Source: a virus
Lineage: Duplodnaviria > Heunggongvirae > Uroviricota > Caudoviricetes
DNA: 36,283 bases
Reading direction: 5' to 3' (one strand)
IMG/VR virus record: IMGVR_UViG_2671180456_000012
Shown here: positions 4,469 through 10,020 of the stretch, one piece after another
Layout of the letters: the number at the start of each line of letters is the position of its first letter
Position numbering within the stretch: the first letter of the stretch is position 1
Notes under the pieces: model-generated
What the model was told of the DNA's origin: nothing
The model's input: the letters and a program-made list of their open reading frames with translations, nothing else
The model's database searches: none
Position numbers and translations under genes: made by a program

Positions 4469-4514
4469 CCTTTTGTATGTTATTTGGCTATTATAATAAG
4501 TAAGTGATTACTTA
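4469..4514. promoter_or_regulatory. Divergent promoter region with overlapping -10 elements and a TAAGTA-N6-TACTTA palindrome
   Basis: ATTATAAT at 4490-4497 reads as TATAAT on both strands. The palindrome taagta(4497-4502)/tactta(4509-4514) is at the predicted rightward start site. Only 64 bp separate the helicase and ParB starts. Confidence 0.35.
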
Positions 4515-5213
4515 GTGGATTGTAGCAATAAAATGGATGTAAAAATCACGATTTTGCAGGTTGATGTTGCCAACCTTCGCCCGAATACCTGGAACACCAA
4601 TTCGGTTGGTGCGCAGAATTTTGAAAAACTGAAAGGTTCTATCGAAAAATTGGGCTTTTTTAAGCCAATTTTGGCTCGTGAACTTGAAGATGGATTTTTT
4701 GAAATCCTCGGCGGCGAACATCGCTGGCGTGCTGCTATTGAGCAAGGAATTTCAACGGTTCCGGTGCTTTCTGTGGGCAAAATTAGCGATGTCGTAGCTA
4801 AACAGATGTCACTGGTGGACAACGAGCGATACGGTGAAGACGACCAAATCGCATTGCAACGCTTCATTGAAGAAATTCAGTCAGAACTTGACTATCAACT
4901 GTCTGAAATCGCCCCGTATGACGACGAAATCTCGATGGTTTTAGCAAAAGAGGCGGCAATCGACCTTGAAGCACTGGAGGCGTTGTCTCGTGGTAGTGAT
5001 GAGCCTGTCGATACCGACAAACGAGAGAAAACCGAACGTGTGGGTGCGGAACATCAGACCATGCGCTTCAAAGTAACTTTCGATGCGTCAGATCGTGTTG
5101 CAGAAACCATAAAAAACATCATCAAAGAGCAGGCTATTAACACCGGTAATGAAATGGAGAACGCTGGTGAGGCTCTGGTGTGGCTGGTCGACTACTACAA
5201 GGAGCGTATGTAA
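4515..5213 (+). CDS. ParB-like nuclease-domain protein 1
   Basis: N-terminal ParB/Srx fold motif (FEILGGEHRWRAAIEQGISTVPV) and an acidic C-terminal half. The track start is GTG at 4515; the ATG at 4533 is an alternative. Confidence 0.8.
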   Translation: MDCSNKMDVKITILQVDVANLRPNTWNTNSVGAQNFEKLKGSIEKLGFFKPILARELEDGFFEILGGEHRWRAAIEQGISTVPVLSVGKISDVVAKQMSLVDNERYGEDDQIALQRFIEEIQSELDYQLSEIAPYDDEISMVLAKEAAIDLEALEALSRGSDEPVDTDKREKTERVGAEHQTMRFKVTFDASDRVAETIKNIIKEQAINTGNEMENAGEALVWLVDYYKERM

Positions 5214-5881
5214 TGACCAAAAAGTTTGAAATCGTATATCGCGACCCGGCAGATCTTATTCCCTATGAGATGAATGCCAAAAAGCATGATGAACAGCAGA
5301 TCCGAGATCTAGCCGCAGCCATTAAAAAGCGCGGATTTGACCAGCCAATTACGGTCGATAAGAACGACGTAATTATTACTGGCCACGGCCGCCGTGAGGC
5401 TGCAATTTTTGCTGGACTTGAGCGCGTACCGGTTATTGTTCGCGATGATCTCAGTGATGACGAGGTTCGTGCGAAGCGCCTTGAAGATAACCGACTTGCC
5501 AGCATTGATTACGATGCAATTAAGCTACAGAAAGAGCTTGAGTCGCTTGTTCTGGACGATATCGAGGTTTTCGGCTTTGAAGAGCGTGAGTTGAATGTTC
5601 TCGTTGGCAGTATGACAGAAGAAATGGACACCGACTCGCTAGTTATCGATCTTGGCGAAGAAACTAAACGACAGAAGGATGAACACACCGAGATCAGTCG
5701 TGAAGTTGCAGCGGAAGAAGTACGTGTTGTCGACGTATTGGGCTTTAAAACGCTCCCTGCTGGCTCTGCCATTGTTGTTGGTGATTTGCTTGCCCACATG
5801 GAAGAAATGACGGGAGAAAGCGGGGTAGACGCATTTGTGGCATATGCGGAGAAGATCTCTTCCGGGGAGATGGCTGCATGA
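5213..5881 (+). CDS. ParB-like nuclease-domain protein 2
   Basis: Motif IITGHGRREAAIFAGLERVPVIV. The ATG at 5213 overlaps the upstream stop (taATGa) with AAGGAG 8 nt upstream; the track ORF 5180..5881 is the same frame with an earlier start. Confidence 0.8.
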   Translation: MTKKFEIVYRDPADLIPYEMNAKKHDEQQIRDLAAAIKKRGFDQPITVDKNDVIITGHGRREAAIFAGLERVPVIVRDDLSDDEVRAKRLEDNRLASIDYDAIKLQKELESLVLDDIEVFGFEERELNVLVGSMTEEMDTDSLVIDLGEETKRQKDEHTEISREVAAEEVRVVDVLGFKTLPAGSAIVVGDLLAHMEEMTGESGVDAFVAYAEKISSGEMAA

Positions 5882-6516
5882 GCAAATACATCATCAACGT
5901 ATCGTTTCAGACACGCGTAAATAAAACCACGCGCACGTTGGAAATCGCTGAGTCGTTCGGGCTTGGTCTGGACGAAAAAGAGTGGACGCTTTACGACAAT
6001 CTGGAGCTGGAAGTGAAGCAGGGCGATGTGGTGTACATCACAGGCCAATCCGGATCCGGCAAATCCGTTGTGCTGCGCGAGTTGCAACGACAGATGAAGG
6101 ATGAAGGGCTGTCTGTAGCCTCCATCGATGATTTTACCTTCGATAATGAGGTTAACGTCATCGATCAGTTGGGCAAAACGACCAGTGATGCGCTTGGGTT
6201 GTTATCTATGGCTGGTCTGAACGATGCATATCTGTTTGTTCGCAAGCCTTCTGAAATGTCAGACGGCCAGAAATATCGTCTCAAGATTGCCAAACTGATT
6301 GAGTCAGGCGCTAAAGTGTGGGCTGCTGACGAGTTCGGGGCTGTTCTAGACCGTGTAACCGCTCAAGTTGTGGCATCTAACCTCCAGCGTGCCGCTCGAA
6401 AGGTTGGTGCGACGGTAATGGTGGCGACGACTCACGAAGACCTGAAGAACGCGCTGCGCCCGGATATGCAGATCACCAAGCACTACAAAGAACGCGTGAA
6501 GGTGGAATATGCCTGA
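5878..6516 (+). CDS. Stand-alone ABC-type ATPase (nucleotide-binding domain only)
   Basis: 212 aa with Walker A (GQSGSGKS), ABC signature-like MSDGQKYR, Walker B with D-loop (VWAADEFGAVLD) and H-loop (VATTHE), at canonical NBD spacing. Start overlaps the upstream stop (ATGA). Confidence 0.75.
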   Translation: MSKYIINVSFQTRVNKTTRTLEIAESFGLGLDEKEWTLYDNLELEVKQGDVVYITGQSGSGKSVVLRELQRQMKDEGLSVASIDDFTFDNEVNVIDQLGKTTSDALGLLSMAGLNDAYLFVRKPSEMSDGQKYRLKIAKLIESGAKVWAADEFGAVLDRVTAQVVASNLQRAARKVGATVMVATTHEDLKNALRPDMQITKHYKERVKVEYA

Positions 6517-6763
6517 TTTGAAGATCGTAGAGCTGAAGCCATCGAAAGAGGCTGACAACAACAACGTTGAAGTCATCCGCCTGCTGGAAGAAGCACTCCA
6601 GTACGCCAGAGAAGGCAAAAGCCAGAGCCTGGCACTGCTGATGATCAACAACGACGGCAGTGTGCTGGATTGCTGGCATAACGGTGGGCGTCCATACGTC
6701 ATGGTTGGGGCGATGGAATCGCTTCGCCTGGACTTCATCAATGCCAATATCGAGCGTAGGTGA
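6509..6763 (+). CDS. Hypothetical small protein (84 aa)
   Basis: Start overlaps the ATPase gene end and its stop overlaps the next gene start, i.e. translationally coupled within the operon. No motif recognised. Confidence 0.55.
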   Translation: MPDLKIVELKPSKEADNNNVEVIRLLEEALQYAREGKSQSLALLMINNDGSVLDCWHNGGRPYVMVGAMESLRLDFINANIERR

Positions 6764-6768
6764 TCGAC

Positions 6769-7659
6769 ATGACAGGCATCATCATCAAACGCTACCGCCC
6801 GGAAGAGTTCCCGCGTCATCTGGACTTTCTGGAGCGTATGACCGTTACCAAAGGCACGGTTGAAGACTGGCACGCGCTGAAGTCGCTGCACTACAAGACG
6901 GATGGTAAGCCGTTTGCGCCAACGTATTATCGCTGCGAACTGGACGACCGGCTGGTGGGCGTCGTGGTTATGGCTTACCCGAAACTGCTGCTGGCGCCTC
7001 GCCATCGCATGTTTCCTAAGCTGAAGCCAACCACCAATACCACCGTGGCCAACCAGTATTGGGGGCGGTACGTGAACAACAACTTTGCGGTGATCAGCCG
7101 TTCCGTTGTGGACACTCAGTACCGCGGTGTCGGCGTCTCCTATCGAATGATTAACCTGGTTAGCAGGATGCACGACCGGCCAATCATTGAGATCCAGTCC
7201 TCGATGAGCAAATACAATCCCTTCGCCATGAAAGCAGGGTTTAAGTTCATCCGCCCTGAGCGACCGAAGAGCTATGAAAGTGCACTGCGTGTATTCCAGC
7301 GCCATTTCCGTTCCGACCCGGGTGATAACGAGGCGATCGTCAAAGAGTTGTTCGCAATGAGCGAGTCTCGTCGTCGCCGTGCATTGCGTGATCTGGTGGC
7401 GGACTACCACAAGAACAGTTCCCTGGCAAAAGCTGGGCGGAATCGTGGCACGACGATTCAGGACATTGCCGACAGTCTGGTGGACGAGGCCAGCATTGTG
7501 AAGCTGCTCAAGGACATTCACAACCTGAGCTTTACGTCTCCGTTGTATGGTGTGTACCGAAACCCTGACTTTGGCCGTCGACTGCCTGACACGCTGCCAC
7601 TGCTGGCATTCGACAAACAACCTTTGGATAAACCGTTAGAAATTGCTTTACCGGCATAA
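6769..7659 (+). CDS. GNAT-fold acyltransferase-like protein with C-terminal extension
   Basis: Motif VISRSVVDTQYRGVGVSYRMINLV resembles GNAT motif A (Q/R-x-x-G-x-G/A). AGGTGA SD 5 nt before the ATG at 6769; the track starts at GTG 6760. Confidence 0.55.
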   Translation: MTGIIIKRYRPEEFPRHLDFLERMTVTKGTVEDWHALKSLHYKTDGKPFAPTYYRCELDDRLVGVVVMAYPKLLLAPRHRMFPKLKPTTNTTVANQYWGRYVNNNFAVISRSVVDTQYRGVGVSYRMINLVSRMHDRPIIEIQSSMSKYNPFAMKAGFKFIRPERPKSYESALRVFQRHFRSDPGDNEAIVKELFAMSESRRRRALRDLVADYHKNSSLAKAGRNRGTTIQDIADSLVDEASIVKLLKDIHNLSFTSPLYGVYRNPDFGRRLPDTLPLLAFDKQPLDKPLEIALPA

Positions 7660-7668
7660 GGATTTGCC

Positions 7669-7935
7669 ATGACGTTAACCGATAAACAAAAGGACATCAT
7701 CAAAACGCTCAATCTCGGTTATGAGCGAGGTCATCTACTTGATCTGGACGAATTGCTTGAAGTTTTGCCGTACAAGACAACCAAGCAAAGTATCCAGTTC
7801 TCAATTCGCGCTCTGATAAAAAAGGGGCTGGTGGAGAAAGGGCATACGCGCCAACGCAGTGACAATCGCTATCACCGCCGAACTCTTGGGTTAACCACTT
7901 TAGGTCGAGCCAAAGCGAAGTTACTGGTGATGTAA
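7669..7935 (+). CDS. Winged-helix DNA-binding protein, putative regulator
   Basis: 88 aa; helix-turn-helix-like core (TTKQSIQFSIRALIKKGLVEK) followed by a basic wing. Last gene before the palindromic region and terS. Confidence 0.5.
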   Translation: MTLTDKQKDIIKTLNLGYERGHLLDLDELLEVLPYKTTKQSIQFSIRALIKKGLVEKGHTRQRSDNRYHRRTLGLTTLGRAKAKLLVM

Positions 7936-7937
7936 TC

Positions 7938-8036
7938 GGTCTGGGAGCTTATTTAAAGACCTGCTTCTGTATATATAAATAATAAGTAACTTATTAAATA
8001 TATACGGAAGCAGGCTTAATAAGACATGCCCAGACC
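7938..8036. repeat. About 100-bp nested imperfect palindrome (candidate pac/ori/operator/bidirectional terminator)
   Basis: Outer arms ggtctggg (7938-7945) / cccagacc (8029-8036); inner arms ctgcttctgtatatata (7961-7977) / tatatacggaagcag (7999-8013) with one mismatch; centre aataagt-a-acttatt (7981-7995). Confidence 0.7.
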
Positions 8037-8131
8037 TAATTAAACACCCCAGAAAACAAGTTGGTTAGCAGATTCAGTAAACAAGTTGTTTTAGAGCGCA
8101 TGGACGCGCTCTGTGTGTTTTAGAGGGATCT

Positions 8132-8764
8132 ATGACGGTCGAAAAAGACGAGGTAAAAACTCGCCTGACACCAGCGGAGTGGGCCGAAGCTGAAGCCAAA
8201 TGGACGTCAGGCGAATATACACTCTCAAAGCTGGAGGAAGAGTACGGCATTCGTCGTGAAACACTCTCCAGACATTTCAAAAAGCGAGGATTAGAGAAAG
8301 GCGCGGACTCTGTTGGGAAGATGGTTCGTGAGTCTCTTAAATCTGACGCAGAGCTTCGCGCTAAAGCCCGTGCGGAAAAGATAGAAGAACGTCGTACACG
8401 TTATGACGGCTGGGCGTATGCGTTGGGGCAGATGGTGATGGTCGAAGTCACTACGGCCAAACGTGAGGGTAAGCCTTTAGGGGCGATTGAGGATTCTCTC
8501 AAGAGCTTACAGAGAGCCAGTAATACCCTTGCAAAATGCTTTGAAGTTTCGTCCAAAGCATTGGGCATGGATCATGCGGAAAATGACGAGGAAGAAATTC
8601 CGAACCTGGTATTTGGTGAGCTTACGCCTTCCCAGGTGGCGAAATTACGTCAGGAAGACGACGAGCCTGAAATCATCGATGACGAATTGCTTGAGACGTT
8701 GGAAGAAGAAGCTCTAAGCGAATTTGATGCGACAGATGATGGAAGTGAAGGGGAGGACGAATAA
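8132..8764 (+). CDS. Terminase small subunit (putative)
   Basis: 210 aa, N-terminal HTH-like segment and highly acidic C-terminus, GAGGG SD, immediately upstream of and overlapping the large terminase start. Confidence 0.65.
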   Translation: MTVEKDEVKTRLTPAEWAEAEAKWTSGEYTLSKLEEEYGIRRETLSRHFKKRGLEKGADSVGKMVRESLKSDAELRAKARAEKIEERRTRYDGWAYALGQMVMVEVTTAKREGKPLGAIEDSLKSLQRASNTLAKCFEVSSKALGMDHAENDEEEIPNLVFGELTPSQVAKLRQEDDEPEIIDDELLETLEEEALSEFDATDDGSEGEDE

Positions 8765-10020
8765 TGGCAATCCCGTCCTCGCTCAGTCTTGTGCAACTGC
8801 ATTCTGGACAGATGAAAGTCTTCCAGTCTCCGCATCGATTTAAAGTTGTTTGTGCTGGTCGACGCTGGGGAAAATCCCGGTTGTCGATCTCCACTATTAT
8901 TCGTGCGGCGGCAAAGGAAAAAAAGCAAAGAGTCTGGTATGTCGCTCCTACTTACCAGATGGCTCGCCAGATTTTGTGGGACGATCTACAGGAAGTTCTG
9001 CCTCGTAAGTGGGTTAGGAAAAAGAACGACACCACGATGACAATCGTGTTGAAGAACGGTTCGGAGATCGCCCTCAAAGGTGCTGATAAGCCTGACACTC
9101 TGCGCGGCGTAGCGTTGCATTTTGTAGTGCTTGATGAATTTCAGGATATGAAGGCTGACACCTGGTACAAGGTGTTACGACCTACTCTTTCATCGACACG
9201 CGGCGGTGCACTGATCATTGGTACGCCAAAAGGCTTCTCGGAATTTCACAAACTGTGGACTATAGGCCAGAACGTAGAGCTGCAAAGAAAGGGACAGTGG
9301 AAGAGCTGGCAGTTTGTAACTGCCGATTCTCCGTTTGTACCTACGGCGGAAATTGAAGCTGCTAAGAACGATATGGACCCGAAATCGTTCGCTCAGGAGT
9401 ACCTGGCGAGCTTTGAGAACATGTCCGGGCGCGTTTACTACCCGTTCGATCGTAACGTGCATGTAAAACCGCTTCAGTTCAACCCTCGGTTGCCTATATG
9501 GGTAGGGCAGGACTTCAACATTGACCCGATGTCTTCAGTAATTTTGCAACCTCAGCCAAATGGTGAGCTATGGGCAATTGATGAATTGGTGCTCTTTTCC
9601 TCTAACACGGCAGAGGTTTGTGATGAGCTTGAGAGACGCTTCTGGCGCTGGAAATCACAGATAACGGTATTTCCAGATCCGGCAGGTGCTTATCGCCAAC
9701 ATGCTCGCGGGGAGTCTGACGTCGACATATTCAAAGAGAAGGGATTCTTACGTGTCGATTATTCGAAAAAGCACCCGCCAATTGCGGATCGTGTTAATGC
9801 TGTTAACCGAATGCTGATGACCGCATCTGGAGATATCCGGCTGTATATCGATCCGAAGTGCAAGCATTTGATTGATTCACTGGAAAAAGTCATCTACAAG
9901 CCTGGAACACGAGATATGGATAAGACAGGTGGCATTGAGCATAGTGCAGACGCATTGGGCTATCCAGTACATCGTAGGTATCCAGTCAAAAACCGTGTTA
10001 TTCTTGGTGGTTCTCGATAG
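8764..10020 (+). CDS. Terminase large subunit
   Basis: 418 aa; Walker A-like VVCAGRRWGKSRL near the N-terminus, Walker B-like hydrophobic stretch ending in DE (LHFVVLDEF), and a C-terminal nuclease-like region. Position between terS and portal. Confidence 0.85.
   Translation: MAIPSSLSLVQLHSGQMKVFQSPHRFKVVCAGRRWGKSRLSISTIIRAAAKEKKQRVWYVAPTYQMARQILWDDLQEVLPRKWVRKKNDTTMTIVLKNGSEIALKGADKPDTLRGVALHFVVLDEFQDMKADTWYKVLRPTLSSTRGGALIIGTPKGFSEFHKLWTIGQNVELQRKGQWKSWQFVTADSPFVPTAEIEAAKNDMDPKSFAQEYLASFENMSGRVYYPFDRNVHVKPLQFNPRLPIWVGQDFNIDPMSSVILQPQPNGELWAIDELVLFSSNTAEVCDELERRFWRWKSQITVFPDPAGAYRQHARGESDVDIFKEKGFLRVDYSKKHPPIADRVNAVNRMLMTASGDIRLYIDPKCKHLIDSLEKVIYKPGTRDMDKTGGIEHSADALGYPVHRRYPVKNRVILGGSR

Follow-up and report, generated by a model that had tools for sequence, protein, structure and literature searches.

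A nested palindrome ahead of terS in an SSU5-like phage-plasmid: one of three copies of a hairpin cassette and a possible transcription barrier at module boundaries

Sequence-related intergenic hairpins that recur at module boundaries of a phage genome and act on the transcript are known as promoter-early stem-loops (PeSL) in T4-type phages and as the RNase III processing hairpins between the early genes in T7. Another group of described elements comprises dispersed palindromes of 13–16 bp with abutting half-sites, such as the sopC-like centromere/operator sites of N15 and the KorB operators of RK2. Here we analyze a nested palindrome of about 100 bp at positions 7938–8036 of a 36,283-nt DNA stretch (IMG/VR record IMGVR_UViG_2671180456_000012; hereafter the window, meaning the whole stretch at its full length), located between a block of ParB-like and ATPase genes and the packaging genes that begin with the small terminase subunit gene terS. 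In its action, the element comes closest, among the described systems, to intrinsic terminators or insulators. Like these, it forms a stable hairpin with a GC clamp just past a stop codon between co-oriented genes; a uridine tract (U-tract) follows it in copies 2 and 3 of the three copies present per genome, and copy 2 coincides with a 90- to 1000-fold drop in RNA. Unlike ordinary intrinsic terminators, it has a nested stem of ~40 bp rather than a stem of 5–14 bp, its copy in the window lacks a U-tract, and the sequence of its 55-bp core hardly changes among the three paralogues or from genus to genus. It differs from the PeSL and the T7 RNase III hairpins by having only three copies, by a much larger length, by fixed syntenic sites, and in that no promoter consensus was found nearby.

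Three further systems resemble the locus in part. In the Q/PR'/tR' region of phage lambda, as here, the intergenic region between a small regulator gene and the first late gene holds a terminator hairpin with a U-tract, so that late expression must pass the terminator. In contrast to lambda, no promoter or Q-binding element was identified at our locus, the putative regulator is winged-helix-like and not Q-like, and the large palindrome, which also occupies two non-late loci, has no lambda counterpart. The lambda cos site (cosN-cosB-Nu1) and the SPP1 pac site (pacL-pacC-pacR) share with the locus the succession of a symmetric element, short repeats and the terS start codon; here, however, the 100-bp symmetric element occurs three times per genome and the short repeats belong to a motif with seven sites genome-wide. 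Finally, as with the N15 and KorB sites, palindromes are dispersed on a phage-plasmid, some of them beside lytic control regions, and genes with ParB domains are found nearby, although the ParB_N proteins considered here are also present in non-plasmid relatives. The short 13-bp boxes AAACAAGTTGTTT described below fit this last comparison better than the large palindrome does.

Judging from its sequence, the window comes from an Escherichia coli phage-plasmid of the SSU5-like group. The region 7000–9500 is 98.7% identical to Escherichia phage CMS-2020a, 99.7% identical to Cyrano (pLF82) over the 60% of the query that is aligned (the Cyrano record starts within it), and ~80% identical to Salmonella phage SSU5 and its Klebsiella relatives. 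Cyrano positions are converted to window positions by adding 7997. We tentatively favor, at somewhat short of even confidence, the interpretation that the palindrome is copy 1 of a three-copy hairpin cassette of ~100 bp that serves as a transcription barrier or control element at module boundaries.

The original prediction described a set of nested inverted repeats at the junction of the ParB-like/ATPase block and the packaging genes. Both the position at this boundary and the outer arms, inner arms and centre were confirmed in the sequence, where the element has the following parts.

7938–7945: outer left arm GGTCTGGG, complementary to the outer right arm in 8/8 positions
7946–7959: left spacer, variable among lineages, partially pairing with 8015–8028
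7960–8014: conserved 55-bp core, 16-nt arms CCTGCTTCYGTATATA and TATATACRGAAGCAGG flanking N23, dyad centre at A7988
7960–7976 and 7998–8014: inner arms CCTGCTTCTGTATATAT and ATATATACGGAAGCAGG, 17 nt with a single T·G mismatch
Around A7988: centre, AATAAGT/ACTTATT
8015–8028: right spacer CTTAATAAG, without a U-tract
8029–8036: outer right arm CCCAGACC

The 23-nt middle of the core is AT-rich and partly palindromic, and a repeat search merges this AT-rich part into 16-nt arms (7972–7987 and 7989–8004) that are 88% complementary. The base of the inner stem is formed by CCUGCUUC and GAAGCAGG, and the segments between the outer and inner arms pair partially. The predicted RNA fold of 7925–8050 has a free energy of −54.6 kcal/mol, compared with −20.7 ± 3.1 kcal/mol for dinucleotide-shuffled sequences (z = −10.9, with 0 of 200 shuffles as good), and the DNA fold of the same region has −30.4 kcal/mol (z = −9.7). 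The coding-strand RNA, at −50.6 to −54.6 kcal/mol (z ~ −10.8), has the stable GC-rich stem-loop that is expected of an intrinsic terminator. A search of the region against Rfam gave no family match, only sub-threshold generic microRNA-like hairpins.

The core and the outer arms are present three times per genome. The window holds copy 1 only; the complete ~108-kb Cyrano genome contains all three copies, spaced by ~31, 47 and 30 kb.

Copy 1: before terS
Copy 2 (31.16–31.21 kb in Cyrano): 3' of CYRAN_30 (last gene after parA) and 5' of CYRAN_31, with helicase, primase and ligase genes next in order
Copy 3 (78.08–78.14 kb in Cyrano): between the Dam methylase gene and CYRAN_80

A plasmid search with the region 7880–8180 retrieved 798 records, of which several have multiple places and a few match the palindrome alone, and an exact-pattern scan of IMG/VR for one arm yielded at least 120 loci. 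Among the IMG/VR matches listed, the two arms are nearly always 39 nt apart. Again among the matches listed, ~100 loci pooled from IMG/VR and PLSDB are true palindromes of 52–57 bp, and they are located at three syntenic sites: 31 before terS, 35 before CYRAN_31 and the helicase genes, and 34 after the Dam methylase gene. Every one of the enterobacterial SSU5-like elements that were examined has copies at these three intergenic positions; the full set is present in SSU5 itself, and two or more loci were found in 12 of 12 SSU5-like phage records. The element was detected in 259 of 5426 complete E. coli genomes (~5%), where all 404 places are plasmid-borne and none is chromosomal. Since the outer arms TCTGGG...CCCAGA are retained in all three copy types, the whole nested structure of ~100 bp is the repeated unit. 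The sub-motif CCCAGAC is not enriched genome-wide.

Two common types of repeats were considered and rejected. A mobile element of the miniature inverted-repeat transposable element type is ruled out by the location of all 100 instances among the matches listed at the three syntenic sites, and a host repeat of the REP/ERIC type by the lack of a chromosomal copy in the 5426 complete E. coli genomes. Two degraded SSU5-like plasmids retain copy 2 together with a CYRAN_31-like gene: a 61-kb remnant without terminase genes in Enterobacter ludwigii (plasmid NZ_CP116350.1) and a fragment flanked by insertion sequences in an IncF conjugative plasmid (NZ_CP062888.1). In the searchable literature we found no description of the element, of an SSU5 palindrome, of the SSU5 genome ends or of a PhageTerm analysis.

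The position of the copies relative to the flanking genes is almost constant. In Cyrano, the core starts 24, 24 and 23 nt past the upstream stop codon and ends 117, 116 and 108 nt ahead of the next start codon (copies 1, 2 and 3, respectively), and the genes flanking each copy are always co-oriented. Between the window and SSU5 with its Klebsiella relatives, the 55-bp core is 95% identical, compared with 64–75% for the spacers and outer arms (71–75% for the left spacer) and 52–55% for the third codon positions of terS. In an alignment of 30 distinct cores of all three types most arm pairs are invariant, alternative pairs being limited to the pair just outside the arms and to one Y/R position; the type 1 outer arms contain one two-position compensatory change, seen in two loci. 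As the arms hardly vary or covary, they are constrained as sequence and not merely as pairing partners. The near-invariance of the core exceeds the needs of pairing, and therefore its recognition by a sequence-specific factor, at the level of RNA or DNA, is probable.

Transcript-level evidence is provided by the U-tracts, by the pattern of substitutions in the arms and by published expression data. The U-tracts were measured as the mean number of T in the 9 nt after the inner stem.

Copy 1: 3.1 T on the coding strand, 3.7 T on the opposite strand
Copy 2: 5.9 T on the coding strand, 4.2 T on the opposite strand
Copy 3: 5.4 T on the coding strand, 3.1 T on the opposite strand

A coding-strand U-tract is thus present in copies 2 and 3. 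The predicted hairpins are stable in all three copies (z = −10.9, −8.4 and −6.5 for copies 1, 2 and 3, respectively), and the coding-strand RNA folds ~6 kcal/mol better than that of the opposite strand (−50.6 versus −44.7 kcal/mol). One-sided changes in the arms, when read as coding-strand RNA, yield G·U pairs in 26 cells and A·C mismatches in 8 cells. Gene expression in the LF82 lysogen is available as per-gene values, log2(FPKM+5), where FPKM denotes fragments per kilobase per million mapped fragments (S1 Table of PMC9928086). At copy 2, RNA falls from ~1100–1400 FPKM for CYRAN_30 to ~1 FPKM for CYRAN_31 in condition B6, and from ~1000 to 10–13 FPKM in condition MB6 (PMC9928086), that is, ~90- to 1000-fold. 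The gap between these two genes is 193 nt, and copy 2 is its sole strong structure. In vivo, copy 2 therefore behaves like a highly efficient terminator. In the same lysogens, RNA falls only 2- to 6-fold over the interval of copy 1 and the small hairpin behind it, from 42–46 to 8–10 FPKM in B6 and from 87–94 to 25–43 FPKM in MB6 (PMC9928086), which makes copy 1 a leaky terminator at best. The strong step at copy 2 and the leaky step at copy 1 agree with the U-tract pattern. A scan for sigma-70 promoters gave none in 7500–8400 or around copy 2.

The region between the large palindrome and terS contains several smaller features, two of which, a direct repeat and a GC palindrome, had been noted in the original prediction.

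8054–8066: box 1, AAACAAGTTGGTT, an imperfect copy of the 13-bp palindrome AAACAAGTTGTTT
8079–8091: box 2, AAACAAGTTGTTT, a perfect 13-bp palindrome, AAACAA-G-TTGTTT
8093–8121, plus strand: small GC hairpin with a GTGTGTTTT tail, terminator- or attenuator-like

The direct repeat AAACAAGTTG is real at 8054–8063, while its second copy lies at 8079–8088, one base away from where it had been placed; in full the repeat is 17 nt long (8050–8066 and 8075–8091, offset by 25 nt). The GC palindrome was confirmed as AGAGCGC (8093–8099) and GCGCTCT (8106–8112) with the loop ATGGAC. This small hairpin is the sole consensus terminator-like site in 7500–8400, and together with its tail it stops 1 nt short of the terS Shine-Dalgarno sequence GAGGG (8123–8127). 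Its region is 90–95% conserved; G-C to A-U compensation is seen in two lineages, and all one-sided changes produce G·U pairs, as expected for an RNA terminator or attenuator that late transcription must pass. The segment 8085–8131 has an alternative helix of 16 pairs, 8089–8104 with 8110–8125 (−17.9 kcal/mol, z = −3.6), which uses the direct repeat TGTTTTAGAG (8087–8096 and 8116–8125) and extends into the terS Shine-Dalgarno sequence; it could be a translational or attenuation switch.

The motif AACAAGTTG of the two boxes occurs 7 times in the Cyrano genome versus ~1.2 occurrences expected. All seven sites are intergenic, mostly 20–75 nt before a start codon.

Two sites: terS
One site each: parA, the ribonucleotide reductase (RNR) beta gene, a tciA-like gene, CYRAN_87 and CYRAN_106
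Cyrano coordinates of the five sites other than those of terS: 29260, 70329, 80552, 81281 and 96287

In the SSU5 locus examined, the motif lies at 6450 and 10386 and is kept ahead of parA, and in phage nickie an inverted pair of ACAAGTTGTTAA is found ahead of terS. Klebsiella lineages have lost one box, box 1, by a deletion of ~25 bp, equivalent to ~8041–8066, as expected for the product of recombination between the two direct repeats. The 13-bp motif looks like the operator of a regulator that acts as a dimer, or else like a centromere-like site dispersed over the genome.

The genes around the palindrome are arranged as follows. On its 5' side, two ParB_N proteins, an ABC-type ATPase, a second ATPase-like protein and an 88-aa protein are encoded; on its 3' side, a TerS-like protein, the large terminase subunit TerL and the portal protein.

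7669–7935, plus strand: 88-aa gene, phrog_900 (open reading frame with a PHROG match), directly 5' of the palindrome
8132–8764, plus strand: TerS-like gene, phrog_867, with an N-terminal helix-turn-helix; opens the packaging/structural module
8764–10020: TerL, downstream of terS

A single-sequence AlphaFold2 model of the 88-aa protein (predicted local distance difference test score 72.5) has the order helix-helix-helix-beta-wing-beta and is winged-helix-like. Its best fold matches are the DNA-binding domains of LexA, HrcA and DtxR, all weak (E-value 0.14 or worse). The gene is expressed in the prophage state: in the LF82 lysogen its homologue CYRAN_123 is at ~40–95 FPKM, and CYRAN_122 just upstream is near zero (PMC9928086). 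Because CYRAN_122 is silent, the 88-aa gene has its own promoter within the preceding coding region. Neither the 88-aa protein nor TerS matched PDB sequences or Pfam. The Cyrano homologue of the TerS-like gene is annotated as terminase small subunit, and the N-terminal 80 aa of TerS are almost unchanged across lineages. The nearest solved structures of TerL are the ATPase domains of P74-26 and T4 gp17, which are uninformative for the choice between pac and cos packaging.

The same gene order, with two ParB_N genes, ATPase genes, a small gene, a large palindrome, terS, terL and the portal gene, was found in three distant relatives, Pseudomonas phage nickie, Stenotrophomonas phage BUCTxx99 and Rhizobium phage RHph_N1_10. 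Relative to the window, these phages have TerS proteins of 27–33% identity and, as small proteins, homologues of the 88-aa protein. Their palindromes show the pattern of GC-rich arms around an AT-rich centre and differ in sequence. BUCTxx99 has the small protein closest to that of the window and in addition a similar outer arm, CCGGTCTGGGCT/AGCCCAGCCCGG. In BLAST searches the distant terS-proximal palindrome was found in three places in RHEph10, in one or two in other Rhizobium records and in one in nickie. Thus, the association of a small winged-helix gene and a palindrome next to terS is ancient; this pairing and the invariance of the core make recognition by a factor likely. The block of ParB_N, ATPase and small genes (~4500–7935 in the window) is syntenic with terS, terL and portal genes in the Pseudomonas, Stenotrophomonas and Rhizobium phages, and its second ATPase-like protein is called an ATPase fused to acetyltransferase in some records. 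Since phages without a plasmid annotation have the same block, a role of the ParB-like genes in partition is unlikely, and these genes may serve DNA packaging or processing.

According to the barrier interpretation, transcription of the cassette on the coding strand would give the upstream unit a very stable 3'-terminal hairpin, and this hairpin would limit or process read-through to the next module, which at copy 1 comprises genes for packaging, structure and lysis. With their U-tracts, copies 2 and 3 would be efficient terminators, and the window copy a leaky barrier, backed up by the small hairpin with its U-tract (8093–8121) just before the terS ribosome-binding site. A sequence-specific factor probably also reads the cassette and would set the passage of lytic transcription, the adjacent 88-aa winged-helix protein being a candidate. 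The analysis establishes the structure with its three copies, their constant geometry and conservation, the U-tract pattern and the RNA step at copy 2; action of copy 1 on RNA, binding of a factor such as the 88-aa protein to the core and regulated read-through are inferred.

Several observations weigh against a role as an RNA barrier. The window copy has no U-tract on either strand: the inner stem is followed by CUUAAUAAG and the outer stem by UAAUUAAAC. Together with the modest RNA drop at this copy, this does not agree with the strong bidirectional terminator that had been suggested as one option. The palindromes upstream of terS in nickie, BUCTxx99 and RHph_N1_10 also lack a U-tract, and therefore the ancestral role there may not be intrinsic termination. 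In type 3 cores, A·C and G·U mismatches are equal in number. A consensus terminator scan calls none of the three large copies, as its geometry stops at 20 pairs and loops of 3–8 nt. The expression data are per-gene values rather than mapped 3' ends, and they come only from lysogens of a relative that is 99.7% identical. Finally, recognition by a protein accounts better than a hairpin does for the near-invariance over 55 bp, and the symmetry would be just as compatible with a role at the DNA level only.

The main rival explanation is a purely DNA-level operator, which we consider unlikely on balance. The palindrome would be a duplex site of a phage regulator, most plausibly the 88-aa winged-helix protein, the hairpin would be incidental, and three lytic modules would be controlled in trans by repression, roadblock or activation of promoters ~60–110 nt downstream. 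Such an operator would account for the near-invariant core with its symmetric half-sites and almost no covariation, and for the location of each copy at a fixed distance of ~110 nt ahead of the first gene of a module. It would also agree with the presence of a homologous small winged-helix gene directly 5' of a palindrome and terS in four very distant phage groups, with its transcription in lysogens from its own promoter, and with the outer arm CGGTCTGGG/CCCAGCCCGG shared by BUCTxx99, the phage with the closest small protein. The inner arms TTCTGTATATAT resemble LexA half-sites, and the LexA DNA-binding domain is the best fold match of the protein; this match, however, comes from a single-sequence model and has an E-value in the weak range given above. 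The half-sites are 39 bp (inner) and 91 bp (outer) apart, which is unusual for a small winged-helix dimer, and the sigma-70 scan found no promoter overlapping the element. The coding-strand U-tracts of copies 2 and 3 and the G·U bias indicate a role at the RNA level, and an RNA drop of ~1000-fold, as seen at copy 2, is rarely achieved by roadblock alone. A host LexA box was rejected, as 23 bp separate the half-site-like arms and CCG replaces CTG in many lineages; partial string matches to a Tus/Ter site, a T4 late promoter (TATAAATA) and a MotA box lack the required spacing or conservation.

Two of the options raised originally, a packaging site and an origin, are undercut by the two further copies at non-packaging loci, whereas the option of a terminator or operator is favored. 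As a packaging site, the palindrome would be the cleavage site of the terminase (cosN- or pacC-like) and the two AAACAAGTTG boxes would be binding sites of TerS, as in the cosN-cosB-Nu1 arrangement of lambda. The location directly 5' of terS with two repeats in between, its retention in distant relatives, and the invariance across lineages of the TerS N-terminus, similar to that of the core, all speak for this possibility, and the linear GenBank record of SSU5 starts within the palindrome, 9 nt to the right of its centre (window position 7997). We nevertheless find it improbable. The element adjoins terS and yet, unlike a cos site, is not unique in the genome: the same palindrome with its outer arms is located ~31 kb and ~78 kb from copy 1 in Cyrano, and cuts there would produce sub-genomic DNA. 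The AAACAAGTTGTTT box also precedes parA, the RNR beta gene, the tciA-like gene and others, with five intergenic sites elsewhere, and one of the two boxes is lost in Klebsiella lineages. Pac and cos sites are not known to feature large perfect palindromes. An assembly break at a hairpin repeat present in three copies would account just as well for the start of the SSU5 record, and the start of the Cyrano record, one base later, is not independent, pLF82 having been re-oriented to SSU5. Similarly, 3 of 7 whole IMG/VR contigs end less than 200 bp from a copy, which is weak evidence and fits assembly breaks at the repeat. A site of lytic replication or recombination seems very improbable. Such a site could be an origin in which inverted initiator sites surround an AT-rich region of unwinding, as in oriS of herpes simplex virus, or a hairpin or cruciform that seeds recombination, for instance recombination-dependent replication by a T4-like machinery (UvsX/Y/W, gp32-like, SbcCD-like, RuvC). 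The AT-rich centre between GC-rich inverted arms, the spacing of the three copies, the location of copy 2 directly before helicase, primase and ligase genes, and the SbcCD-like, RuvC and UvsW/X/Y-like proteins encoded by the genome would fit it. However, the cumulative GC and AT skews of the whole Cyrano genome are monotonic with no inflection at any copy, neither iterons nor DnaA boxes were found, and no recognizable initiator gene lies beside copies 1 or 3. Moreover, the fixed position 23–24 nt after stop codons and the coding-strand U-tracts are unexpected for an origin, and the distant relatives have the terS-proximal copy only. The target of a protelomerase (telRL, N15-type) was rejected: the palindrome length would fit, but no protelomerase is annotated in Cyrano, the relatives are circular plasmids, and three sites would yield three pieces.

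Two observations concern the records themselves. The SSU5 record JQ965645.1 is split inside the palindrome, between ...ACTTATTA and AATATATACGG..., and therefore annotation pipelines never see the whole element in the reference genome. At the other end of the window, an Rfam IS009 match (35248–35446, plus strand; 218 bits, gathering score 117) is located within a tail-fibre assembly gene of the lambdoid type (34905–35486). The similarity of this end is to lambdoid phages (ev099, mEp332) and not to Cyrano, and thus the tail-fibre module is mosaic.

Returning to the barrier interpretation, we speculate, as a doubtful extension, that the three palindromes are factor-gated terminators that would seal the replication, packaging and third modules in lysogeny, and that on induction a dedicated phage protein would recognize the conserved hairpin or duplex and open all of them simultaneously. 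The candidate for this role is the 88-aa winged-helix protein, whose gene is syntenic with terS from Enterobacteria to Rhizobium. If true, this would be a compact, previously undescribed switch of the lytic program in a very common phage-plasmid family that includes relatives of pHCM2 and pMT1 and is also present in Klebsiella, Salmonella, Enterobacter and Yersinia. Because nearly all of the ~110 kb are transcribed in one direction, the separation of plasmid-maintenance genes from lytic genes is a practical question for these elements, with consequences for induction, transduction and the spread of resistance genes. The cassette corrects a tempting mis-annotation, as a big palindrome before terS does not by itself make a pac or cos site, and it is useful as a marker and as a known assembly-break point of SSU5-like elements. 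Nearly invariant and present in three copies, it offers a testable handle on the control of modules in this family.

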